A stretch of DNA of 37,592 nt from an uncultured virus (IMG/VR IMGVR_UViG_3300031951_000061) (IMGVR_UViG_3300031951_000061); one strand, 5' to 3'. Counted from the stretch's first letter, positions 2,414 to 35,249 are shown. The notes: generated from the sequence alone by a model not told the origin. A program made the numbers and translations.

Positions 2414-3046
2414 TTATGATTGACCAAATGTACGATCTACGATCTTTCCATATGATCCTGACGCATCTTCTGGTAGAAGACGGAATGAAACTTCAAACAT
2501 TGACGCTTCGTCACGCTTTGCGGATACAGTTACGTTCTCAATTGATAGAGCACGATATGCTGTGTAGACACGCTCAACAGAGTCAGAGTTGTCGCAATCT
2601 CCAGTTCCTGGTCCAACAGCAACGATTCCTCGTTCTACTGGACATTCTCCAAGTTCACCTGCAGATAGATTAAGTGTCTGACCTGTAGATGCTGCCTTGT
2701 TTCCTGTAAGTTGTGCATCAGAGAATGCTAATGCAAGAAGCAAGTTTTCTAGGGTTGCTTCAGCAAAAGCGGTAGCAAGATTAACTTGCATACCTTGCTT
2801 ATATAGTTTTGCAACGTCAAGAATTTGATCTACCTGGACTTCACCGAAGTCTGGTTGGAATTGTAATTCTAAACCGTTCATGGTATAACCTACGTTAGTG
2901 TACGCTGCATCTGCTGTCAGAGTATCCTTAAAAGACTCACTGGAATCAAAAGACTCTAGTGTGCCTGGTGTAAGGGTAGTATCTGCAACGAAAAGTGCTG
3001 CTGCACCAACGATAATGTTGTTTGACGTACCACGGCTATATGGCAT
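2414..3046 (-). CDS. major tail (tube) protein
   Basis: 210 aa; NIIVGAAALF, VGYTMNGLELQFQPDFGEVQVDQ and FEVSFRLLP are typical of siphoviral tube proteins; own promoter, GAGGTG SD and terminator. Confidence 0.85.
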   Translation of the reverse strand: MPYSRGTSNNIIVGAAALFVADTTLTPGTLESFDSSESFKDTLTADAAYTNVGYTMNGLELQFQPDFGEVQVDQILDVAKLYKQGMQVNLATAFAEATLENLLLALAFSDAQLTGNKAASTGQTLNLSAGELGECPVERGIVAVGPGTGDCDNSDSVERVYTAYRALSIENVTVSAKRDEASMFEVSFRLLPEDASGSYGKIVDRTFGQS

Positions 3047-3117
3047 ATTTATTCACCTCTTTCATAAAGTATATTAAGTTGTTTGGCGTGTTTCCTCAAA
3101 ACTAATTATACCGCTGT

Positions 3118-3690
3118 TTATGTGTATCTAGAGTCTGGCTCAGTCTTTATATGGTAGTCGTACTCAATGATTAATTTATTTACAAACAGGGTTCTGGCTG
3201 ATGCCAATTCTGCTACGTCCCTGCTTTCATCTGCCTGGTACACCCTTGTGTTATGGAAATAAATGTTATATGGTATAGACACCTCTCCAGCAGAGTTTAG
3301 TATAGGGTTTGAAATGCTATAAGAGTTTATATCCTGGGCTGAAGCGTCTTCACGATCAAGGGCATTTGAAATCACACGCACAGAATCTATTAACTTACCC
3401 ACATCTGTAGAATATATAAAATATATAAGTTGCTCTCTTTTGTGAGCATAAAATGGAGTAGGTCTAAACCTCATAAGTCTGTCATAAACAATAAGAACTG
3501 GGCTTTCTGTTTGTCTTATTTGAATACTATCGTTATATAAATCTTCAATGTTTGTTGGAAATTGTGCTGGAACCATTGGGGTTGGATTAACAAGGTCTGA
3601 TTCTGCAACAAGCCCATAGAATGCTAACTCAGATAAAACATATCTATTTAAAAAGGTAGGTGGAAAACCAGTGTCTGTTAGTATAGCCAT
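3118..3690 (-). CDS. putative tail terminator/completion protein
   Basis: 190 aa directly upstream of the tail tube gene; leaderless start (TAGAAT 6 nt before ATG). Call rests on synteny. Confidence 0.55.
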   Translation of the reverse strand: MAILTDTGFPPTFLNRYVLSELAFYGLVAESDLVNPTPMVPAQFPTNIEDLYNDSIQIRQTESPVLIVYDRLMRFRPTPFYAHKREQLIYFIYSTDVGKLIDSVRVISNALDREDASAQDINSYSISNPILNSAGEVSIPYNIYFHNTRVYQADESRDVAELASARTLFVNKLIIEYDYHIKTEPDSRYT

Positions 3691-3694
3691 AGTC

Positions 3695-4372
3695 TTATTC
3701 TACCCCAATTGTTGCATTAGTAATCCACTTAAAGCCTGTATCAACACCTTTACTTTTACCCATTTTTGATCCTGCTTTAAAATTCTTTTTGTATAAAGTT
3801 GGTTTTTTAATATAGTCGTATAAACCAGATGCTCTCAAAAATGATTGTTTAAAATATCTTGTCATAAATTCATCAAATGTTGATTCAAAACCTTTATATA
3901 CTGCATCTCCACCTGGATTTTCAATTTTAATTGGCTTACTTGTAAAAACTTCTCCGCTAGGTCCATTAAATTTCAATACTTTAGACTTGGTTGGTGCAAT
4001 TGTAACTGGAATTCCATTTTCCATTATTCTTGCTTTATCATAAAACGGGGCTGTCATATTTTCTGATACGCTTCTTGATTGTCTAAAGGTAGAATTAATA
4101 GATAATCCTAGATTGCTAACGGTATATCTTAAATCAAATAATCTTGCAGTTGGACTACCAGTTTGATTCCATTCGTAAACGTGATGTAATGCTTTTGGGT
4201 TTGACCTTGCCTGCACATCAATATATTGTGATAATGACTGAATAACTCCTAATCCCAAATTATCAAGAAATATTTTTTTACCACGATTTACACCCTCTAA
4301 AAATCCAAGGGAATAATTTACTATGTTATTCATTTGTTTAGTAAAAGAAAGCGTATTAGTGTTTACTATCAT
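3695..4372 (-). CDS. putative neck/tail-completion protein
   Basis: 225 aa, basic, in the head-tail joining block; coupled to the upstream gene. Call rests on synteny. Confidence 0.5.
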   Translation of the reverse strand: MIVNTNTLSFTKQMNNIVNYSLGFLEGVNRGKKIFLDNLGLGVIQSLSQYIDVQARSNPKALHHVYEWNQTGSPTARLFDLRYTVSNLGLSINSTFRQSRSVSENMTAPFYDKARIMENGIPVTIAPTKSKVLKFNGPSGEVFTSKPIKIENPGGDAVYKGFESTFDEFMTRYFKQSFLRASGLYDYIKKPTLYKKNFKAGSKMGKSKGVDTGFKWITNATIGVE

Positions 4373-4821
4373 TAGTCGCCTACGGTTTGATTTTCAGTTC
4401 TACGCCATAGCATTTTATAATACTCTACAGATCCAAATGGTCCAGTAAATGGCTCAACTGTTGCTATTTCATATATTGTTCCTCTACCAGATCTTGGGCC
4501 AGCAGTTTCCTTATAAATAATGCTATCACTAGCGTTTCTTACATTAGTTACAAGTATATTTGTTGTTGCATTATTTGCATTATTTGAAGATAATCTGGGG
4601 TCATTTTGGGTCCTTGCAATAAGTTTGTTTTCATATTGTAAAAATGCTTCTGGTTTAATATCTTCTGTTCCTAAGCCACCAACTGGTGTTGCATTACATA
4701 CTATAGTTCTATCATAAACCCAGTCTTTTTTGGGTTGACCATATTCACCTTGTGTAAGAATTGGGAAATATATATCAGCCTTCATTGGGTACATAAAGTC
4801 TGTAACTTCACATGAGTTCAT
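4372..4821 (-). CDS. putative head-closure (stopper) protein
   Basis: 149 aa, beta-rich (GEYGQPKKDW, YEIATVEPF), follows the adaptor; TAATG coupling. Confidence 0.55.
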   Translation of the reverse strand: MNSCEVTDFMYPMKADIYFPILTQGEYGQPKKDWVYDRTIVCNATPVGGLGTEDIKPEAFLQYENKLIARTQNDPRLSSNNANNATTNILVTNVRNASDSIIYKETAGPRSGRGTIYEIATVEPFTGPFGSVEYYKMLWRRTENQTVGD

Positions 4822-5822
4822 TACAAAACTCCAGGACGAACAATATTATTAACATATTTAGACAAAATCTTGTCTACAATAATATTTCCAGTACCCTCAA
4901 TCATTCTTTTATCGTATTCAATTTTAAATTGATCAGTGCTGTAGTTTTTTACATATCTCTTGTAATAATCTAATTTGCCACATTTAATGTCATTAATTAA
5001 TAATTTTGTGGCATCTTGAATATCAATAGGAACTACCTTGTATCCTGTTTCTACTAAGAAAATGTAATCTGTTCCATTTGGAAATCCTACGCCAGCCGTA
5101 ATAGTTTGAACATTTCCACTATCTTCTGTATCAAATATTGCAAACGAGTCTGAGGAAGCCACTGGAATTCTTGCTGGACGTCTTTCTGCTCTATTAAGAG
5201 AGTCTGTTGCTTGCACTGGATCTTTTGTAATTGCAGTTTTATCTTTAGTAATTAAATAATTATAATCTCCCAATGCTGGACCGTCTGGATCATCAATATC
5301 ATAAACTAACTCTGCATTTTCATATGCTTTTAATATTTTATGTGTTCTATCCCAAAGAGGAATGTAATCTGTTTCTTGACCAACTATTTCAAGATATTTA
5401 CGAGTATAGTAAAAACCATCAACCATTGTGTCAATAATTGCTCTTGCTAAAGATTCATATTCTTTATATTTAGCAATATCTGTGGCAGAGGTTTCACCAT
5501 TTGCAATTGCCAACTCTGTCGGATCTATATATGGACGTTCAATTTGTAAGTTATCTTCAACTACTATATCTCCACGTTCCCCATCAATATCTTCATATAT
5601 AGTCACTGCATAGGATTTATCATATTTAATAAAGTCCCCGCTTAGTTCATATGTAATAGTTCCTTCTGAAGAAGATGTTAGTCCAGATTCTGCACTAATA
5701 AATTCTTCAATTTCTGTTTGCTCTGGGACATCTTCAATAACAAGAATATAATCTGCTGCTTCATTTGGAACCTTATAGGTTACTGAAAGCGGGTATGGTG
5801 GTAAACGAAGTACTGTTGACAT
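4821..5822 (-). CDS. putative head-tail adaptor protein with N-terminal extension
   Basis: 333 aa; C-terminal GYKVVPIDIQDATKLLI...TGNIIVDKILSKY resembles SPP1 gp15-type adaptors; located after the capsid gene. Confidence 0.6.
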   Translation of the reverse strand: MSTVLRLPPYPLSVTYKVPNEAADYILVIEDVPEQTEIEEFISAESGLTSSSEGTITYELSGDFIKYDKSYAVTIYEDIDGERGDIVVEDNLQIERPYIDPTELAIANGETSATDIAKYKEYESLARAIIDTMVDGFYYTRKYLEIVGQETDYIPLWDRTHKILKAYENAELVYDIDDPDGPALGDYNYLITKDKTAITKDPVQATDSLNRAERRPARIPVASSDSFAIFDTEDSGNVQTITAGVGFPNGTDYIFLVETGYKVVPIDIQDATKLLINDIKCGKLDYYKRYVKNYSTDQFKIEYDKRMIEGTGNIIVDKILSKYVNNIVRPGVL

Positions 5823-6178
5823 TAATCTTTACGGTAATAAGATGCTACCTCTTCAGGTGACGCTATGCGTACAAGCCTATGAGTTAGCCACTTCTCCGAT
5901 GCCTCCTTTGACACTATGTTATACCCCACCTTTAAAGCACCAAGGTTGTCCATATGAAGATTTTTATCTGAATATAGAGCCACCTTGTTTGTTATATTTT
6001 CAGCCTTATCTGCTTCTTCTACACGCTCTTCTTTATTTTCTGGTGGAAACCAACTAGCAATAATTTCCAAAATTTCAAGTTTAGTACTTGCTTCAAACAA
6101 TTCTATATTATTTTTTTTAGCATATGCTTTTAATGCTAATACACTCTTAGTTGACAATTCTTCCATTGTTGTATTCAT
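5822..6178 (-). CDS. Rho-N/HeH-like domain protein
   Basis: N-terminal ELSTKSVLALKAYAKKNNIEL..TKLEILEII pattern; such genes commonly follow capsid genes. Confidence 0.55.
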   Translation of the reverse strand: MNTTMEELSTKSVLALKAYAKKNNIELFEASTKLEILEIIASWFPPENKEERVEEADKAENITNKVALYSDKNLHMDNLGALKVGYNIVSKEASEKWLTHRLVRIASPEEVASYYRKD

Positions 6179-6217
6179 AATTCTCCTGTACTCATTTGTA
6201 ATTATACCACCAGAATG

Positions 6218-6252
6218 ACAATAAGGAGGACGGTTTTTATACCGCCCTCCCT
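6218..6252 (-). terminator. stem-loop/terminator after the major capsid gene
   Basis: GGAGGGCGGT-loop-ACCGTCCTCC followed by a weak U tract (TTATTGT). Confidence 0.65.
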
Positions 6253-6271
6253 AGTACGTGATTGTTATATT

Positions 6272-7420
6272 TTAGGAATCAGCGCTATCTGAGTCAACAT
6301 ATGCGACTGCATCTAGTTCTTCCCATTGGATACCAAAGCGTACGAATACTGTGTATTCAATTGTGTCTTTCTTTGGCTTGTATTCACGGTTTACAGTGAT
6401 GTCTCTCTGGAAGCCCCATACACGGTTCTGAGGGAATGTTAAATCAACATAACCTGCAGGGTAGTAAGGAACCTCAAGAACATCTACACCAAGTACACGA
6501 GTTGTACGTGCATTACCTAGTGTCTGTGCTCCACCATCAAGGAATTCTTGACGATTTGCTTGTGTGCTACCAACACGATCAGCGAATGCTGATGAGATGG
6601 CGTCTGCAAGTGTACCGTTGTTGCGAACGATACCAGCAAATGCATCAGTACCTGCGTAGAACTTTAGATTGCTCTTAAGTGCACGATACTTGCGAGGCAT
6701 TGCTAATAGCAAACCTTGCATTACTGATGTTGTGTAGTTGTTATCTGAAACTGTTGCAGCATATTCGTGAGCATCGTTTCCGACTGTTCCACGAGTTTGC
6801 TTTACGAAACCTGCCATAATTGACAAGAATGCGTCTGCGCCTGTTCCAAGACCGTTGATAGCAAGATCTTCAATATCGTTTGCGAAAGCATTGGTCATTA
6901 AGCGAACTAAATGATCTTCAAGTGCTCCACCTTCAATATTGTCTTCAAGTGCTTCAGTTGATACTTCCCAATCAAGACGAATCTTTTTGGTTGTAAGTTC
7001 TACCTTTGAGAATGTTGCACCGATGTTTGTATAATCTGGTGCGCCTTGAGCAGCAGCACGAATTACACGTTCACCAACGTTTACCTTCTCAATTTCCATG
7101 GTGTTTGCTCTCATGGTGACACGACGGCCATCTTTAGCGAGGACAGTTGCATCCCATACGTAGTCAATAAAACGACGTGCTTGCTCTGGTGCTAAAATAC
7201 CACCTGCAACACCTGTTGGGTTTACTGCGTTTGCTCCAGTTGTTGAACCGAATGCTGCAGTAGCAGTGTTACCAAGTTGTGAACCTACAGATGATCCTGC
7301 AGAATCCAAACCTGTTGCACTACCTACACCACCTGATACAAATGAGCCTGCTGAGTTAATTTCAGCGCCTGCGGTTGCACCTGGATAGTTTTTTTCTAGG
7401 TCTTTATTTTGTTCCGACAT
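6272..7420 (-). CDS. major capsid protein (HK97 fold)
   Basis: 382 aa; GGILAPEQARRFID, FSKVELTTKKIRLDWEVSTEALEDNIEG, DIEDLAINGLGTG; strong GGAGGTG SD. Confidence 0.93.
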   Translation of the reverse strand: MSEQNKDLEKNYPGATAGAEINSAGSFVSGGVGSATGLDSAGSSVGSQLGNTATAAFGSTTGANAVNPTGVAGGILAPEQARRFIDYVWDATVLAKDGRRVTMRANTMEIEKVNVGERVIRAAAQGAPDYTNIGATFSKVELTTKKIRLDWEVSTEALEDNIEGGALEDHLVRLMTNAFANDIEDLAINGLGTGADAFLSIMAGFVKQTRGTVGNDAHEYAATVSDNNYTTSVMQGLLLAMPRKYRALKSNLKFYAGTDAFAGIVRNNGTLADAISSAFADRVGSTQANRQEFLDGGAQTLGNARTTRVLGVDVLEVPYYPAGYVDLTFPQNRVWGFQRDITVNREYKPKKDTIEYTVFVRFGIQWEELDAVAYVDSDSADS

Positions 7421-10855: not shown

Positions 10856-13800
10856 CTATACTGGTGTAGCGACAGTGCTTGACCATTCTATACCTGAATA
10901 GACCTTTAATATTTCAGGCTGATACACAAATCCCTCTCCGTCATCAATAATAATCTTATTAGTTCCTATATATGTTTTATAAATATCTAATGGATTAATT
11001 CCATAAAATTCTGAAGAACCTATGACTAACATGCCGTCCCAAGTAAAGTTATTTAGCCAGTATTGCCAGTCAAAAGTAGTAATTCCATCCGTTAATACTT
11101 TATACCAAGGTCTAAATGTTCTACTTTCAACCTCTTGTAAACTATTTGCCTGATAATAAGCAATATTGTTAAATAGGGCTGGTCCAGTGATATTTATACT
11201 ACCTAGGTATGAGTTGTAAACAAGCGATGTTATAAAAGATATGCCAATAGCAGACCACTCTTTAAGTGATAAAACTGGCTCTCTTACAAGATTTCCATTT
11301 AAATAAAAGGCAATTCCATTAACTGGAACCCCATTTTCATTTAAAACAAAAACCTTTCCCCTATTTAGATCAGTGCTGTTAGCCTGTATATAAAATTTTA
11401 GTATACCGTCTTTATGATTAATTTCAAATATTTCTGTAGCAGTTTCTGGAAAAGTATCTTGATCATATCTTAACCATAATTGCATAGCACTCACCTTGTA
11501 TGAAGTTGCTAATTCTTTATTAATAGGAAGAGATAATCCACGACTTTCTAAAATGTTAAATTCTCCACGTACTTCCAATCCAGAAGTTTTAGTTAAATAC
11601 AGATATGGAGTGCTTTCTTTATAGATACTAAATGGATTTTTTGATTTATAATCAAAATATATACCATTTTTCTTGTATGGAAATAAATCTACGCCAAATC
11701 TTGTTCCAACTGGATTAGATGAATTATTATTAAATGCCTGTGACGCTAATTGTAACTTATTCAATAATATTGGTTTAGTTAAAATACCACGACTATTGAA
11801 CTCAAGGCTATAAACAATAGCAAGACTATTAAAATCTTCTGTTTTAATAGGATAAATTAATGTATTGTTTAAAACTTCAAATCTTGTAGTTTCCCAATTT
11901 TCATAACTATTTATATCAAGAATTTTATACTGATTTAAAGTTTGTTCATTTGCAAAAGACGTTGTAATATTTGCCCCATTAGAAACATATTGAAAAGTAA
12001 TATAACTTTTTATTTGTGCTCCAGTTGTATCATAGTAGTATCCAGTGCTGCCAGACTCTTCTATTAATGTTGTTGTTGTTGGATATCCTAAGTTAAACTG
12101 TAAAAAATCTAAATCATAATATTCTTCGCCATCTTTATTTTTTACAAATTGTCCAAAATAGGAAAGTGGTAAATAATCTTGCCAATATCCAGCGACACCT
12201 ATATCTAAAAAGTATTTTTCATATGCTTCGGAAGGTAGGAGTGTATAACTTGCTGTATGAGAAATCAATGTTGATCCGTGATCTAGAATAATAATCCCAT
12301 TTTCATCAAAATTATTTGATATTTTTGAAGAATTGTTTGTGCTACAAATACCAACAGAATATATTCTTCCAGTAAATGAATGCTGTCCAGAATTTTCACC
12401 ACCGACATACATTTTTAAAGAATTTTGATTTCCAAAAAAAGATCCTACGCTTCCGCCAAAATTATCAGATAAATCTCTTAAATTAAAGCCCACTGCAAAA
12501 ATAGTGTTTGCTGTAATTGGATCTGATGTAAACAATAAGTCAGTATTTCCACTATAGGTTAAATAATATTTAATTTCATCAGCATCTTTGACAATAGAAA
12601 AATAATTTCCAGTTATAGGATTATATATTTTAAACAGTGTTTGTTCCGAAACAAGATCGTGGGAACTAAGAACACCATAAAAACTATCAACCTGATTTGC
12701 TAAAACATTAAATTTATTAAAATTAATATAGGTATTTTTGGAATTCCAAGTGTTGTTTGGCCTAAAAGACAAAAACTTGTTTTCAATAAATGGTCCAGAT
12801 TCATTATCCTGTATGTTCTGATTGTCTTCATATAACTCTTCTAATGTTTTTCCATCTAAAAATATTTCAGGTAATGAATATTCTGGCGTTCTTAAACTTG
12901 TTGTAGTTGTTGTTAAGTTATCAAAACTTCCCTGATTCCATCCTGCAAAGTCTGGATAGTTGTAGTTTGCTGTATAGTTAGCAAATGGGTAATCTACGAA
13001 TGCGGTTGTTCCTCCATATGCTGCGTTAATGCCTTCTGGAGAGATAACACCCTGTCCATACACCCATCTACGTTTTGCTACTGTGACTGGAATTTGATAT
13101 GAATAAATTGCAACACAGTCAATCTCAAAAGGGTATACATTAGTATCTGCATAAAATCCTAGCCAGTCTTGATTATCTCCATTGTTGTCAAGTTCGTCTG
13201 GTAAAGAAAGATTATCTGTATCTAATGACAAAGATAATACTTCTTCCCCATTTACCAATAGTGATGCTGAGTTTCTGATTAAACGAATATGAATAAGCAT
13301 TGGCCGAAACCATTCGCCAACGAAATGAGAAGCAAATTGATTACCAATAACTAATGTTAAAAATCCATCTTCAACATATAGTCCATCACTAGATCCAATT
13401 GGTCCAAAAATCTTAAATGGCACTGAAGTATTTACCGCTATTCTTGCCCAAAATTCAACTGTATATTCGTTATACTGTCCTTTTTTATTTAAAAATCCTT
13501 TGCCTGGAATTATTAAAGATGCATCTGTGCTTGGCTCTAGTCTTGTTGCCCCGCTTGCCCCATAAACTAATGGAATTCCTGTATTTTTACATTTTAGTCC
13601 ACCCTCTGTAATATAATATCCAGAATCTTCTGCAATTCCATATGCCTGTGCCTCTACGGCATCTAAACCGCCATAAATACTTATTGTTGATGGAACCGTA
13701 GTTTCTATTATTCCATTTAAAGAGTATGTATTAAACTCTTCATTCCATTGTCCCAAAGTAATTCCATTAAAATAAAATTGATTATCCTGTGGCCCTGCAG

Positions 13801-14320
13801 ATCCTTCAAATACTTTTATTTTAAAAATAATTCTTAATTGTGCTGATACATTTGGTATTTCAAAAGTTTCAGAAATAAATCCCCATTTTTGATAAAGTGT
13901 GCTTGTAAATGTTTTTAAGTTTTGTACTATTGTAGACGTATCTGGGTCAGTATATTCATATCCTATAGAAACATTTTGCAAAAAAACGCTATTTGAATAA
14001 AAATATGATCCTACCGTAAAAGTTCCAAGATTTTCAAGCGTATTAAAATTTAAAATATTTGGACTAATTATTGATGCTTCAAGTGTTTCTGATATTGGAA
14101 CATCAACTTCAATTAATGATAAAATACTATTTGGAAATGGTTCTTTTAGTGAAGAAGATTCTAAAGTTGCGGTTGCATTTGTTACTGTCCAAGAATTATG
14201 GATTTCACGATTTGACTCAGAAATTAAACTTTTATAGTCAAGTGTATCGTCTAATGCCCACAAAACTAGCGGATGCTCTGAATATATTTTTTCTGCATAC
14301 AAATTTGATGGGGTAGACAT
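10856..14320 (-). CDS. large virion-associated protein with concanavalin A/LamG-like domains
   Basis: 1154 aa, aromatic/Asn/Ser-rich beta protein; YAEKIYSEHPLVLWALDD, YTVEFW, LLVNGE, FTGRIYSV are LamG-like motifs. Confidence 0.6.
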   Translation of the reverse strand: MSTPSNLYAEKIYSEHPLVLWALDDTLDYKSLISESNREIHNSWTVTNATATLESSSLKEPFPNSILSLIEVDVPISETLEASIISPNILNFNTLENLGTFTVGSYFYSNSVFLQNVSIGYEYTDPDTSTIVQNLKTFTSTLYQKWGFISETFEIPNVSAQLRIIFKIKVFEGSAGPQDNQFYFNGITLGQWNEEFNTYSLNGIIETTVPSTISIYGGLDAVEAQAYGIAEDSGYYITEGGLKCKNTGIPLVYGASGATRLEPSTDASLIIPGKGFLNKKGQYNEYTVEFWARIAVNTSVPFKIFGPIGSSDGLYVEDGFLTLVIGNQFASHFVGEWFRPMLIHIRLIRNSASLLVNGEEVLSLSLDTDNLSLPDELDNNGDNQDWLGFYADTNVYPFEIDCVAIYSYQIPVTVAKRRWVYGQGVISPEGINAAYGGTTAFVDYPFANYTANYNYPDFAGWNQGSFDNLTTTTTSLRTPEYSLPEIFLDGKTLEELYEDNQNIQDNESGPFIENKFLSFRPNNTWNSKNTYINFNKFNVLANQVDSFYGVLSSHDLVSEQTLFKIYNPITGNYFSIVKDADEIKYYLTYSGNTDLLFTSDPITANTIFAVGFNLRDLSDNFGGSVGSFFGNQNSLKMYVGGENSGQHSFTGRIYSVGICSTNNSSKISNNFDENGIIILDHGSTLISHTASYTLLPSEAYEKYFLDIGVAGYWQDYLPLSYFGQFVKNKDGEEYYDLDFLQFNLGYPTTTTLIEESGSTGYYYDTTGAQIKSYITFQYVSNGANITTSFANEQTLNQYKILDINSYENWETTRFEVLNNTLIYPIKTEDFNSLAIVYSLEFNSRGILTKPILLNKLQLASQAFNNNSSNPVGTRFGVDLFPYKKNGIYFDYKSKNPFSIYKESTPYLYLTKTSGLEVRGEFNILESRGLSLPINKELATSYKVSAMQLWLRYDQDTFPETATEIFEINHKDGILKFYIQANSTDLNRGKVFVLNENGVPVNGIAFYLNGNLVREPVLSLKEWSAIGISFITSLVYNSYLGSINITGPALFNNIAYYQANSLQEVESRTFRPWYKVLTDGITTFDWQYWLNNFTWDGMLVIGSSEFYGINPLDIYKTYIGTNKIIIDDGEGFVYQPEILKVYSGIEWSSTVATPV

Positions 14321-16460: not shown

Positions 16461-16495
16461 TTAAAAAGAAAAACACGCTTGTTTAAGGCGTGTTA
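16461..16495 (-). terminator. intrinsic terminator between the fibre gene and nrdJ
   Basis: AACACGC-loop-GCGTGTT followed by TTTCTTTTT; an extended -10 (TGATATACT) for nrdJ follows. Confidence 0.75.
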
Positions 16496-23403: not shown

Positions 23404-24090
23404 TTATGTGTATTCTTTTTTTCCCCAAAACATAGTTTTATACCGATCAAAAAACCTTGTTTGTAACTTTGATGAAACCTTGTCTTGCGCCTCATAGTCT
23501 TTGTTATTACCTATTGCCATTGACCATTTGTCACGTTTTATTGGTATTACTTGTGCAATTGGAGTTCCTTGGCTTATAAGCCCCTCAAAATTTGGATCAT
23601 TTAATACAAATGGAAAGTTTACTGGAGCAGTGTACATATCAGTATCCACAATACCTGGCAAAATAGTAAAAATAGAATCTCTATGAAATGGCTGCACAAA
23701 TAATGTTGAGTACCCTTTTGGAGTTTTAATTGACCACGGATTATTAAATTTTGGATATTGATATGGTTTAGCCATTGGATGCTGCGGTGCTTGCTCTATT
23801 GGATGAAAATCTATTAAATTACAGGCAGACCATTGAAAAAATTGATATTTTTGTCCATCTGGCCCATCTTTTAAAGTTACCATTACATCTGCTGGACATG
23901 TAATTATATATCCGCTAGTTAAAGAATCAAGTACTGGAATACAACGCTTAATTGTTCTCATTCCTAAATTTTTTTCTGTATGACTTTCTATGTATGGCCT
24001 TGTATTTTTATACCATTCTGGAATAAATTTGCTGGCAGGTTTTGGCTGCTCTATGTTAACTGGTATTGTGTTTGTAAATAATATTTCCAT
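23404..24090 (-). CDS. DUF6065-like (dUTPase-fold-like) protein, paralog 1
   Basis: PEWYK, KRCIPVLDSLTSGY, PWSIKTPKGYS, PGIVDTD, GTPIAQVIP. Confidence 0.6.
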   Translation of the reverse strand: MEILFTNTIPVNIEQPKPASKFIPEWYKNTRPYIESHTEKNLGMRTIKRCIPVLDSLTSGYIITCPADVMVTLKDGPDGQKYQFFQWSACNLIDFHPIEQAPQHPMAKPYQYPKFNNPWSIKTPKGYSTLFVQPFHRDSIFTILPGIVDTDMYTAPVNFPFVLNDPNFEGLISQGTPIAQVIPIKRDKWSMAIGNNKDYEAQDKVSSKLQTRFFDRYKTMFWGKKEYT

Positions 24091-29013: not shown

Positions 29014-29748
29014 ATGGGGTTAGAGTTTAAAAGCAAAAAAATTATTTTTTATCCAAAATCTGAAAAAATAAAACAGATTATTCCTTGTCCACAAGTTGTT
29101 TCTGCTCCAAAATGGTTTAAGGAAATTCCAGTTTATCAAAAACAGGTAGGCTCTGTGTCTAATGATAAACTAATTGTAGAAAACGGTATACCAAACTATA
29201 CTGCTAAAGCCTGTATGCCATTTTTAGACTCATTAACTACTGGATATTCTTTTAATTTATGGTGTGATATTCAAGTAAGAATTAATCCAGATGGGGCTAC
29301 TACAATATCTTGGGGAAATACAGATGAAGATTTATCACCAATAGTTAGTAGGCCAGAGCCTGAAGGATTTGCTGTTCCAAATGGTTTTAATTCATTAGTT
29401 TTTAGTTGGACTTCTGCTTGGGGAATAAAAACACCAAAAGGTTATTCTTCTTTGCTGACCCATCCTTTTAATAGGACTGATCTTCCATTTTTAACAACGA
29501 CTGGAATTATGGATACAGACCGTTGGGGAATTTGGGGTACACAGCCATTTCATTTACAAAAAGATTTTGAAGGTGTTATTGAGGCTGGTACCCCCATTAT
29601 TCATATCTATCCCTTTAAAAGAGATAATTGGAAATCAGAAATAAATGATAGTTTAACTGAATGGGCTAATTATGAAAACATTAAAAGGTCGTCAAAATTT
29701 AGAGGTTATTATAAAAATAATTATTGGAGCAAAAAAAATTTTAGGTAA
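29014..29748 (+). CDS. DUF6065-like (dUTPase-fold-like) protein, paralog 2
   Basis: PKWFK, KACMPFLDSLTTGY, WGIKTPKGYS, GIMDTD, GTPIIHIYPFKRDNW; leaderless. Confidence 0.6.
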   Translation: MGLEFKSKKIIFYPKSEKIKQIIPCPQVVSAPKWFKEIPVYQKQVGSVSNDKLIVENGIPNYTAKACMPFLDSLTTGYSFNLWCDIQVRINPDGATTISWGNTDEDLSPIVSRPEPEGFAVPNGFNSLVFSWTSAWGIKTPKGYSSLLTHPFNRTDLPFLTTTGIMDTDRWGIWGTQPFHLQKDFEGVIEAGTPIIHIYPFKRDNWKSEINDSLTEWANYENIKRSSKFRGYYKNNYWSKKNFR

Positions 29749-31055: not shown

Positions 31056-31652
31056 GTGCTAGATATCATTAAGCAAACCCTAGTTGAAGGTTTGACAAGT
31101 AAACTAAAAATACATCATAGTGTTTATAGACTTCCTTGTACCAGCGAATTTTTGGAAGAACTTATTGCTAACGTTTTGACTGAGGCAGGGTATATAAACG
31201 ATTGGCAGCCCAATAGAAGCCATAGTATCAGCGTAGACATGTCTTTAGAGTCAGGCGAAAGTTTCTCTGTCAAATCAGGCGTATATGCAAATAACACACT
31301 AACCTTCTCTGGATCCAGGCTAGGCAAATATCAAACCTTAGATGCCATGATATCTAGCGTAGTGGATAATAGTGCGGATTACTATGTGTGTCTTGCAAAG
31401 AGCGACCAGGATTGGTCTTCTGTACCGTCGCAAAATGAGAAGAAGGTTTACTATTTATTTGTCTTCCCTGCCCAAACCTTGATATATGATAGTGGGGTTT
31501 GGAATAAGGTTGAAACCAAATCTGGTGGATATAATTATGTTATGGAGTCTATCGGAATGTCAGCACGTATTAACACCTCTATGTCTTCTCAGTTATGGAC
31601 TAGTGTTAATGAATCGCTTATTGGTTCCCCGACAAAATTGGAAATACTGTGA
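31056..31652 (+). CDS. putative PD-(D/E)xK (restriction endonuclease-like) nuclease
   Basis: Helix SEFLEELIA, then VD(M)-x9-SVKSG, then DYYVCLA and YYLFVF strands; order fits the fold. Confidence 0.45.
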   Translation: MLDIIKQTLVEGLTSKLKIHHSVYRLPCTSEFLEELIANVLTEAGYINDWQPNRSHSISVDMSLESGESFSVKSGVYANNTLTFSGSRLGKYQTLDAMISSVVDNSADYYVCLAKSDQDWSSVPSQNEKKVYYLFVFPAQTLIYDSGVWNKVETKSGGYNYVMESIGMSARINTSMSSQLWTSVNESLIGSPTKLEIL

Positions 31653-31846
31653 GTGACAAAGTTCGTCCATGGGATATGATAAATGGATCGCCTAGGGTTT
31701 CAGCAGAGTTGGTTGAAGAAAGATTAAGTATTTGTTCTACATGCCCTGCTTTTAGACCATTGACTCAGACCTGTAAGAAGTGTGGATGTTTTATGAAAAT
31801 GAAAACACAATTAGAAAAGGCTTATTGTCCTTTAGGTAAGTGGTAA
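31649..31846 (+). CDS. Cys-rich zinc-binding protein (DUF6171-like)
   Basis: RLSICSTCP...CKKCGCFM..K......CPLGKW. Confidence 0.7.
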   Translation: MSDKVRPWDMINGSPRVSAELVEERLSICSTCPAFRPLTQTCKKCGCFMKMKTQLEKAYCPLGKW

Positions 31847-32937: not shown

Positions 32938-32969
32938 AATAAAAAATAAAAAAAATAGTGAGCACACTA
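32938..32969 (-). terminator. terminator of the leftward microprotein operon
   Basis: TAGTG-TGCT-CACTA overlapping the stop codon, then long T tracts. Confidence 0.55.
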
Positions 32970-33062
32970 CTCTTGGTAGTGGCTCCTATCATAGTCTGCA
33001 AGTGTCCCACCATTTTCTAGATGGGACTTGCGCTTTAACTGTTCAGCAGAATACTCTGCCAT
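32967..33062 (-). CDS. 31-aa microprotein
   Basis: MAEYSAEQLKRKSHLENGGTLADYDRSHYQE; directly abuts the upstream stop. Confidence 0.55.
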   Translation of the reverse strand: MAEYSAEQLKRKSHLENGGTLADYDRSHYQE

Positions 33063-33361: not shown

Positions 33362-33514
33362 TTAGTTATTCTCCTCTACATTGTATTGAGCAGATAGATA
33401 AGCGTTAGCCTGATTTAGTGCATCAAGCAGGGACTTATCCTCTCTATCATAGCGAGCCTGTTGGGCTTTTCTGATATCCGCAATAAGGTTATTGTTAGGG
33501 TTATTCTTTATCAT
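33362..33514 (-). CDS. 50-aa microprotein, first gene of the leftward operon
   Basis: AACGAAAGGA SD; MIKNNPNNNLIADIRKAQQARY... Confidence 0.6.
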   Translation of the reverse strand: MIKNNPNNNLIADIRKAQQARYDREDKSLLDALNQANAYLSAQYNVEENN

Positions 33515-33556
33515 TTTAGTTTATCCTTTCGTTAGATAACTTTCTTTATACCTGCA

Positions 33557-33578
33557 ATTCTAGCAGGGGGGTCTGACA
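33557..33578 (-). promoter_or_regulatory. promoter TGTCAG-N7-TGCTAGAAT
   Basis: One of five copies with identical spacing. Confidence 0.7.
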
Positions 33579-33650
33579 ATTTAGGGGGGTTATTTGCTAG
33601 GCTCACTGTGATTTGTATCACATTTACTTGCTAGGCTCACGCCCCTAAAT
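33579..33650 (-). repeat. nested symmetric element (17-bp direct repeats, outer inverted repeat, central CRP-like palindrome); candidate ncRNA
   Basis: ATTTAGGGG/CCCCTAAAT arms; TTAYTTGCTAGGCTCAC at 33590-33606 and 33624-33640; TGTGA-N6-TCACA at 33607-33622. Confidence 0.75.
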
Positions 33651-33677
33651 AATTCTTTATTTAATTTGTATACTGGA

Positions 33678-33706
33678 AGTTTAACATACTAAACCCCAAA
33701 AGTCAA
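33678..33706 (-). promoter_or_regulatory. promoter TTGACT-17-TAAACT with TG extension
   Basis: Canonical spacing; points into the symmetric element. Confidence 0.65.
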
Positions 33707-33813
33707 CACGACACGCCGTGAATAACACACATGTAATTAGTGATTTACACCACAAGACAAATGGTGCAAATCGGACATTGGCTCGGGGAACGACACGCCC
33801 GACCTCGTGATCC

Positions 33814-33882
33814 GTTATCCACATGACGCAGATCACATCAGCATTTCACGCTCAAGTTATCCACATGACCTACATCACATCA
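33814..33882 (+). repeat. 27-bp direct repeat x2, each a DnaA box overlapping a CRP-like site
   Basis: GTTATCCACATGAC-N4-ATCACATCA at 33814-33840 and 33856-33882 (42-bp period). Confidence 0.85.
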
Positions 33883-33919: not shown

Positions 33920-33941
33920 TGTCAGTGGTGGGTGTTATACT
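33920..33941 (+). promoter_or_regulatory. promoter TGTCAG-N7-TGTTATACT
   Basis: Conserved motif; leader GTATAAAGAAAGT is shared with the leftward promoter. Confidence 0.7.
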
Positions 33942-35066: not shown

Positions 35067-35188
35067 TGGGATATATAGAAGTATTCACCATGAATTCTGA
35101 GGGGGCTGGATGGCTAGACCTTTCAGATATTCCCGCAGAAACTCTCCTAGAGTTGGAACTAGGCTTGTTTAACGAAGGGGCTTTGTGA
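35066..35188 (+). CDS. 40-aa acidic microprotein
   Basis: MGYIEVFTMNSEGAGWLDLSDIPAETLLELELGLFNEGAL; TGATG coupling. Confidence 0.6.
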   Translation: MGYIEVFTMNSEGAGWLDLSDIPAETLLELELGLFNEGAL

Positions 35189-35249
35189 GGTATCTCACAC
35201 CCCAACACACCCCCCATAATTGGAAAATGTCAGCGATAACTGATAGAAT
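35184..35249 (+). promoter_or_regulatory. CRP-like box plus TGTCAG-N7-TGATAGAAT promoter
   Basis: Perfect TGTGA-GGTATC-TCACA 35184-99; -10 at 35244-49. Confidence 0.75.

Follow-up and report, generated by a model that had tools for sequence, protein, structure and literature searches.

A modular internal-loop hairpin in the predicted early leader RNAs of uncultured freshwater phages

To our knowledge, phage leader RNAs acting on the transcription or translation machinery of the host are known from a few models (such as nut and put), all of them from E. coli phages. The RNase III signals of the T7 early mRNA and of the lambda N leader are hairpins with internal loops, whose approximate two-fold symmetry suits the dimeric enzyme. 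The archaeal bulge-helix-bulge comprises a central helix of 4 bp and 3-nt bulges on opposite strands, a dyad that is read by a symmetric enzyme; we know of no bulge-helix-bulge enzyme in bacteria. The UAA/GAN internal-loop motif combines UAA on one strand with GAN on the other, and hairpin-shaped, pseudo-symmetric aptamers exist as well. At the DNA level, the CRP/GlxR consensus used in this work is TGTGA-N6-TCACA.

The putL and putR elements of phage HK022 have been described as cis-acting, protein-independent processive antiterminators located just after early promoters (PMC9378689). According to the same source, the put RNA of around 70 nt folds into two stem-loops forming a V, binds the zinc-binding domain of the RNA polymerase beta-prime subunit and acts with no phage protein (PMC9378689). 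Two host regulators of Actinobacteria are also relevant here. PafBC is described as a heterodimer with two WYL/Sm-fold domains that requires single-stranded nucleic acid to activate promoters with the layout tGTCgg(N10)tA(N3)T (PMC8635444), and the actinobacterial LexA motif is given as tCGAAC-N4-GNNCGa (PMC9380542).

The DNA analysed here (the window, 37,592 nucleotides of the uncultured virus IMGVR_UViG_3300031951_000061) is part of a tailed phage, as indicated by PHROGs matches to tape-measure protein, portal, head protease, head protein, ribonucleotide reductase and tail fibres. A Pfam match to the mycobacteriophage family GP88 was found in the window, and WhiB is encoded by the closest complete relative (G002, 109.8 kb). 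The phage and Pfam matches, together with the promoter and operator types described below, point to an actinobacterial host. At least half of the sampled words of the window occur in 17 DNA sequencing runs, mostly labelled as freshwater or lake and, surprisingly, also as fungus metagenome; small shares occur in three runs labelled as RNA.

Several other features of the window deserve a record. The genes at 29014-29748 (+) and 31056-31846 (+) interrupt a long minus-strand gene array; the former and the gene at 23404-24090 (-) are paralogues of phrog_7084, a family of unknown function, on opposite strands. An ORF of 1154 aa (10856-14320, minus strand) with no PHROG family separates the portal-region genes from the ribonucleotide reductase gene. 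A canonical terminator hairpin (GGCCCACCU...AGGUGGG), two-way in that each strand has a T run, is located at 2335-2414 between two minus-strand tail-region genes, and another terminator-like site (minus strand, near 16472) precedes the ribonucleotide reductase gene.

Architecture and covariation of the hairpin

It had been proposed from the window that a promoter TTGACT-17-TAAACT drives an ORF-free minus-strand stretch, in which an outer stem encloses two copies of a 17-mer on either side of a UGUGAU-ACAA-AUCACA hairpin. Both hexamers lie at the positions given for them, and every part of the layout was found. The features of the locus are the following:

33709..33719, minus strand: conserved box ACGGCGTGTCG, directly 5' of the -35 (sequence inspection)
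33701..33706, minus strand: -35-like hexamer TTGACT of the upstream promoter (sequence inspection and promoter scan)
33678..33683, minus strand: -10-like hexamer TAAACT (TAnnnT, with TG in front), separated from the -35 by a 17-nt spacer (promoter scan)
33651..33671, minus strand: A/U-rich stretch AUACAAAUUAAAUAAAGAAUU, predicted to form a single-stranded 5' end of the transcript
33642..33650, minus strand: 5' arm of P1, AUUUAGGGG, 9 bp, pairing with 33587-33579
33624..33640, minus strand: 17-mer copy 1, GTGAGCCTAGCAAGTAA as DNA and GUGAGCCUAGCAAGUAA as RNA; the outer loop takes its 5' strand from UGAGC, P2 one strand from CUAG (33634-33631) and the inner loop a strand from CAAGUAA
33607..33622, minus strand: P3 hairpin UGUGAU-ACAA-AUCACA, 6 bp (TGTGAT-ACAA-ATCACA as DNA)
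33590..33606, minus strand: 17-mer copy 2, GTGAGCCTAGCAAATAA as DNA and GUGAGCCUAGCAAAUAA as RNA; its CUAG (33600-33597) pairs with the CUAG of copy 1 to form P2 (4 bp)
33579..33587, minus strand: 3' arm of P1, CCCCUAAAU, closing the outer stem
33557..33578, minus strand: second, PafBC-type promoter-like site TGTCAG-N10-TAGAAT, between the element and the first gene
33362..33514, minus strand: first gene of the operon, 50 aa, with GAAAGGA in front and no Pfam family
32950..32985, minus strand: intrinsic-terminator-like hairpin of -14 kcal/mol, followed by the long U run UAUUUUUUUUAUUUUUU, within the same-strand gene array

The folded element (33650-33579, minus strand) starts about 28 nt past the upstream -10 and runs through P1, 17-mer copy 1, the P3 hairpin and 17-mer copy 2 to the closing arm of P1. 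A single c links the 5' arm of P1 to copy 1, an a precedes P3 and cc follows copy 2. In line with the proposed ORF-free stretch, no ORF of at least 30 aa covers 33579-33650. The comparative data given below show a predicted rod-like hairpin, composed of P1, an internal loop, the 4-bp P2, a second internal loop and P3. The two loops are identical (5'-UGAGC / 5'-CAAAUAA) and related by a dyad through P2; all of their strands come from two copies of one 16-mer, UGAGCCUAGCAAAUAA, which is invariant.

The evidence from the single window is only modest, and the comparative evidence is decisive. In the window, the 17-mer pattern matches twice (0.23 matches expected), a number reached in 3 of 100 shuffles; the fold has a minimum free energy of -21.2 kcal/mol, equalled by 3 of 200 shuffles (z = -2.27). 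The upstream promoter has 9 of 12 matches to the consensus in the promoter scan, with TG preceding the -10, in a region where sigma-70-like sites are frequent (40 found vs. 31.5 expected).

A search of viral contigs with the pattern GTGAGCCTAGCAANTAA matched at least 120 stretches. Among the matches listed, nearly all carry two (R)UGAGCCUAGCAAAUAA copies, 25 to 34 nt apart, with a variable hairpin between them (for example CCGAAAGG, GACCCGAAAGGGU or UGUGAYNNNNAUCACA) and complementary variable arms outside. An A/U-rich (C/U)AUAACAAnUAAAUAAAG stretch precedes most members and is short or missing in some of them (L011, L071 and L096). Two further viral contigs (L030 and L055) show a lone 17-mer without a partner, directly 5' of a ribosome-binding site and start codon; it could reflect chance or represent a degenerate half-element.

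The alignment of 85 distinct two-copy instances, with the window first, was made with MAFFT and the structure was written by hand. P1, P2 and P3 are kept in these instances while the stem sequences vary (48 distinct P1 arms and 19 distinct P3 5' arms), and the columns of the 17-mer are nearly all invariant. In the MAFFT alignment, 84.9% of the cells are paired, compared with 65.1% in shuffles, and the covariation score is 0.327 against 0.084 when shuffled; none of 500 shuffles reached either value. When the pairing partner was slid by 1-3 columns as a control, pairing dropped to 20-53%. Two-sided changes occur at all five modelled P1 pairs, and 12 G-U pairs were counted inside helices, vs. 2 A-C mismatches. 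When only P2 was forced, folding returned a P1 of at least 4 bp in 84 of the 85 instances. The RNA stems of the original prediction are thus borne out by covariation of P1 and P3.

A covariance model built from the same alignment gave 106 matches in 100 sources. The model-fitted alignment, which is biased towards its model, reached 88.4% pairing and a score of 0.468 (0.108 in shuffles, 0 of 500 as high). RNAalifold yields a weak consensus of -1.03 kcal/mol from the raw MAFFT alignment, recovering parts of P2 and P3; its alternative register, G4-C10' with a bulged C, lies in invariant columns. When folded without constraints, the antisense strand has the lower mean energy (-16.3 vs. -13.5 kcal/mol for the sense strand), so energy alone does not choose the strand.

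The central helix was assessed by two one-sided scans, the first requiring only that position 9 of copy 1 was not G and the second only that position 6 of copy 2 was not C. Both scans returned an identical set of 108 stretches. All of the 123 matches are compensated, as CUAC/GUAG (112) or CUAU/AUAG (11), with no uncompensated case, and so are both matches for the other outer pair of P2 (GUAG/CUAC and AUAG/CUAU), while the two inner pairs are invariant under the scan pattern used. In addition, a 5-bp variant, CUGAG/CUCAG, is present on one metagenome-bin contig. These mirror-image changes, which direct-repeat DNA operators would not predict, argue that P2 pairing is real, and that the 17-mers do pair through CUAG as had been suggested.

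The number of loops differs among relatives. In 22 distinct three-copy hairpins, a split third copy surrounds the pair (UGAGCCUC - two-copy core - GAGCAAAUAA), and in 19 distinct one-copy hairpins a single copy is split by a short covarying stem-loop, giving the form UCCUAG-UGAGC-C..G-CAAAUAA-CCUAGG. The existence of one- and three-copy hairpins indicates that the repeated unit is an internal loop (5'-UGAGC / 5'-CAAAUAA) beside a helix starting with C-G, and not the dyad; the element of the window would then be two such loops head to head across P2. With the loop as the unit, the dimeric protein previously envisaged on the two-fold site is unneeded, given that relatives carry the loop once (19 hairpins) or three times (22), and the idea of a binding platform is kept. 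K-turn and sarcin-ricin readings of the loop were dropped after inspection by eye, the required G-A positions being absent.

In the window, the covariance model identifies one element (the next-best match has an E of 1.5). One element is also found in each of five relatives' records of 98-116 kb, four of them estimated to be complete, and in these records the 16-mer occurs nowhere else on either strand. This rarity fits one site per transcription unit. Two metagenome-bin contigs (L124 and L125) hold three elements each within a few kb, and some contigs have two elements in tandem, about 150 nt apart. In a genome collection of 185,579 species, the two-copy pattern was restricted to five contigs, all from metagenome bins. 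The single-module pattern matched 19 of 401 genomes of one phylum, a chance level (8 matches for a backwards control pattern), and these matches look unstructured, except for a phage-like contig (G007). A host copy of the element, or a host RNA that it might mimic, was not found with the two-copy pattern in the 185,579 species or with the one-module pattern in the 401 genomes.

The claim of novelty holds with respect to Rfam. The whole window gave no match at gathering scores, and the region 33450-33800, searched at E up to 10, gave three chance-level matches (E 4.5-9.6), all outside the element, so that no Rfam ribozyme or riboswitch matches the element even at this threshold. Among GenBank phages, BLAST with either 701 nt or the 81-nt element as the query returned no match or chance-level partial ones (E of 0.7 or higher), so that no cultured phage of this collection is known to have the element. 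The tRNA scan found none. No complementary 16-mer that could be an antisense target occurs in the five relatives (up to 2 mismatches) or in the window (up to 3 mismatches). No description of the family was found in the literature, where sequence strings gave only chance primer matches. It may stand unnamed in a catalogue of more than 10,000 unnamed viral RNA candidates (PMC10690425), whose supplement, in the parts examined, does not contain the strings of the family. From these searches, the element family is, as judged by sequence, a large and uncatalogued one in uncultured lake phages of putative actinobacterial hosts.

Leader position, promoters and DNA sites around the element

The element of the window is located in the 5' leader of a small-gene operon starting at 33514. 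A same-strand gene with a ribosome-binding site lies within 300 nt in 52 of 54 distinct instances, as opposed to 12 of 54 in the divergent control; the genes after the element vary from phage to phage, and so does the spacing to the start codon (-3 to 208 nt). Of the candidate non-coding RNA that the original prediction put forward, the structured RNA-type element stands and its stand-alone nature does not, since 52 of the 54 instances have a same-strand gene so close behind. We conclude that the element is an RNA module with a defined structure, placed in the 5' leader of a predicted phage early transcript. No U run follows P1 in the relatives compared, which, combined with the variable distance to the start codon, indicates the absence of a riboswitch-like expression platform.

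A transcript start near 33671 is inferred for the window, and across relatives the predicted start lies 0-35 nt before P1. Nearly all loci have a promoter-like site in front of the element. TTGACT occurs at the matching place in relatives such as L041, L010, L016 and L045, and relatives have TATAAT or TAGTAT as the -10 at equal spacing. In 118 related loci, which were not de-duplicated, the 100 nt upstream contain 86 PafBC-type and 27 TTGAC(A/T) promoter-like matches and 32 occurrences of the 11-mer box ACGGCGTGTCG; another 18 PafBC-type matches fall in the 100 nt that begin with copy 1. The second promoter-like site of the window (33578-33557) fits the PafBC layout, and transcripts from it would start past the element and lack it.

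Sites with the PafBC layout, TGTC(A/G)G-N10-TAnnnT, number four in the window, vs. 0.85 in shuffles: 33920-33941 (+), 35228 (+), 35949 (+) and 33578 (-). The site at 33920 heads a divergent plus-strand small-gene operon, in which the covariance model finds no copy of the RNA element.

From the predicted start to the terminator-like hairpin at 32985-32950 the distance is about 0.7 kb. The related loci show no enrichment of terminator-like sites in the 1.4 kb past the element (20 of 57 in sense vs. 16 of 57 in antisense), a comparison in which Rho-dependent sites are invisible. Behind its element, the closest relative has 28 same-strand ORFs. Pfam scans of 25 early ORFs of the window and of 114 of the 155 ORFs of the closest complete relative gave no RNA-binding protein or antiterminator.

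Assembled RNA runs also touch the locus. One metatranscriptome contig (run X19, record 13) covers 33533-33701 and reaches into the -35; since it extends into the promoter, it shows no transcript, and carried-over DNA or upstream read-through are possible sources. No transcript start or end was found in the run contigs over the element. The RNA run X18 leaves 33638-33754 uncovered and shows, at 33608, a loose end that comes from the leader of a relative. In its contig, the leader of a related phage (…AAAUCAGGCA) is joined straight to a 17-mer that aligns with copy 2, skipping copy 1 and P3; this junction could be an alignment effect, a direct-repeat deletion or template switching on the folded RNA.

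The same stretch has a second layer as DNA. P3 is a perfect TGTGA-N6-TCACA palindrome of the CRP/GlxR type, one of two in the window (around zero in shuffles), located at 33622-33607, 28 nt before the TGTC at 33578. The other palindrome, at 35184-35199, has the same 28-nt spacing to a TGTC, that of the PafBC-type site at 35228. The CRP-like site that the original prediction recognised is therefore a perfect palindrome with a spacing repeated elsewhere in the window, and it is probably in use as a DNA operator. Since P3 needs only pairing in the RNA, the phage would be free to use its sequence as an operator for a host regulator.

The classes of P3 in 164 distinct instances are CRP-like (17), the LexA core GAAC-N4-GTTC (33), a GNRA-type mini-hairpin (45) and other (69), shares that are not frequencies, as the instances were chosen by pattern. 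In relatives such as L035 (1226-1306), L072 (264-344), L150 and L137 the apical stem is a full actinobacterial LexA box, (T)CGAAC-N4-GTTCG(A). The A and T beside the two central bases of the LexA box are conserved though unable to pair, which points to a constraint at the DNA level. A CRP-like GTGA-N6-TCACA directly follows copy 2 in 46 of the 164 instances.

Other DNA sites accumulate in this region. The window contains four perfect DnaA boxes, TTATCCACA (0.42 in shuffles), at 33815-33823, 33857-33865, 34734 and 35878. The first two lie in a 26-nt direct repeat, GATGTGAT-NNNN-GTCATGTGGATAAC (minus strand), located in the divergent gap just upstream of the promoter of the element, and in the 118 related loci 38 perfect DnaA boxes cluster 200-400 nt upstream of the element. 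This cluster may be an origin or a control site. On another contig (G007:C1, around 2800-6730; L125 and L236), a GTAAC-N6-GTAAC or TAAC-N6-TAAC box is found upstream of three element-bearing promoters, and is probably the operator for another regulator.

Proposed docking of a macromolecule in cis and the alternatives

We propose that the stems of the element would be a scaffold only and that each loop would be the docking site for one macromolecule. The RNA would fold on leaving the RNA polymerase and then act in cis on its own transcript. Within this reading it would most likely hold on to the host RNA polymerase during elongation, or to a factor that accompanies the enzyme, which would allow run-on through stop or pause signals into the co-directional genes; the polymerase version would amount to put-like processive antitermination. 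At the DNA level, the variable P3 would be reused as an operator, with the CRP-type site of the window serving the next promoter downstream. Taken as a whole, this class of cis-docking explanations is given a little less than an even chance.

The polymerase-docking version is tentative, a possibility favoured by the position just after an early promoter, the presence of one to three copies per genome and the invariance of the loops, which is as expected for a conserved host machine. A host machine is also the simplest partner because no phage RNA-binding protein was recognised. The terminator-like hairpin in the operon of the window and the long same-strand block in the closest relative suit it too. 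However, downstream terminators are not enriched, a second promoter follows the element, and the divergent operon has no copy. The occurrence of one to three modules per hairpin is odd for a single RNA polymerase surface and better suits a multivalent protein platform. A close second to the polymerase version is that a protein bound to the loops affects translation or stability in cis.

Rather unlikely, although with several points in its favour, is a platform or decoy acting in trans, by which the leader, perhaps cut free, would bind or soak up a host or phage protein through its one to three sites; this protein could be a dimer on the two-module form, which is truly two-fold symmetric. The modules vary from one to three with invariant loops, and hairpins stand in tandem about 150 nt apart, like sponge RNAs. 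Moreover, the promoter-like site after the element in the window and its closest relatives would make the mRNA independent of the element. Nevertheless, no terminator or defined 3' end is seen past P1, a same-strand gene follows in 52 of 54 instances and the Pfam scans offered no candidate protein. The genome searches do not favour it either: no host-like genome gave a two-copy match, all five being in metagenome-bin contigs, and the one-module matches (19/401) were unstructured-looking apart from the G007 contig.

The chances are lower for a processing or stability signal, where a double-strand-specific or loop-specific RNase (RNase III-like) would cut in the symmetric loops and so define where the mature mRNA begins. 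In favour of it, the element is rod-like, spans about two helical turns, has internal loops and stands in the 5' leader before the first gene. Such signals usually recur between genes, whereas the element is present in one copy in the 37.6-kb window and one per genome of around 100 kb, and its sixteen invariant loop bases exceed what is normally needed.

A ligand sensor of the riboswitch kind, or a self-cleaving RNA, with the loops as small-molecule pockets or catalytic cores, is very improbable. The loops are indeed conserved like an aptamer core and the stems covary, but the expression platform is missing: the spacing to the ribosome site varies, there is no terminator and a promoter intervenes in the window. 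Furthermore, the one-, two- and three-module forms appear interchangeable, and the Rfam search at E up to 10 gave no ribozyme or riboswitch match to the element.

Slimmer still are the prospects of a leader RNA acting as a nucleic-acid ligand for host PafBC, with its two A-rich loops mimicking the DNA-damage signal, so that the early PafBC-type promoters would fire without damage; adjacency and the two-fold shape are what suggest it. Least probable of all is a DNA-only control region with the 17-mers as direct-repeat operators flanking the CRP site and RNA structure as irrelevant. The perfect CRP-type P3 at a fixed 28 nt from a promoter, the CRP-like (17/164) and LexA-box-like (33/164) apical stems and the density of DnaA boxes and PafBC-type promoters would suit it, but it predicts neither the mirror-image compensation between copies (123/123), nor 48 different yet complementary outer arms, nor a split third copy whose halves are joined only by folding, and P3 is merely a GNRA-type mini-hairpin of 2-3 bp in 45/164.

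Comparison with known systems

The family, from uncultured phages of putative freshwater actinobacterial hosts, is abundant, sharply defined and modular, with an invariant core and an unusually well supported structure. It is also set apart by an apical stem that doubles as a candidate site for host regulators of the CRP or LexA type. The likeness to CRP/GlxR and LexA operators lies in the TGTGA-N6-TCACA of P3 in the window and the (T)CGAAC-N4-GTTCG(A) of P3 in many relatives; these operators account for the apical stem only, at the DNA level, and not for the 16-mers or the covarying P1 and P2.

With riboswitches, the element shares a conserved core and covarying stems and differs in the absence of an expression platform. 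Each loop has 5'-UAA-3' opposite 5'-GAG-3', as in the UAA/GAN motif, a coincidence of sequence only, and the extra CAAA of the loop is not accounted for by that motif. The 4-bp central helix with unpaired regions on opposite strands recalls the bulge-helix-bulge. However, the loops of the element comprise 5-6 against 7-8 nt, P2 can have 5 bp and one-module forms exist. The RNase III signals of T7 and lambda are alike in being internal-loop hairpins with two-fold symmetry in an early 5' leader, although the T7-type signals recur between genes, while the element is single per genome and has 16 invariant loop bases.

The element and HK022 put are both folded RNAs of around 70 nt, in sense orientation after an early promoter, with one or two copies per genome and no dedicated phage protein evident. 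In contrast to the two stem-loops of put, the element is one nested hairpin with two identical loops and has no second stem-loop in the conserved block; there is no sequence likeness, the predicted host is an actinobacterium instead of E. coli, and downstream terminators are unenriched. Should RNA polymerase be the partner, the family would provide the first put-like example from outside the lambdoid phages; a host regulator as partner would mean a new route by which a phage seizes the control circuits of its host. Whichever applies, the 16-base loop offers a ready bait for a partner search.
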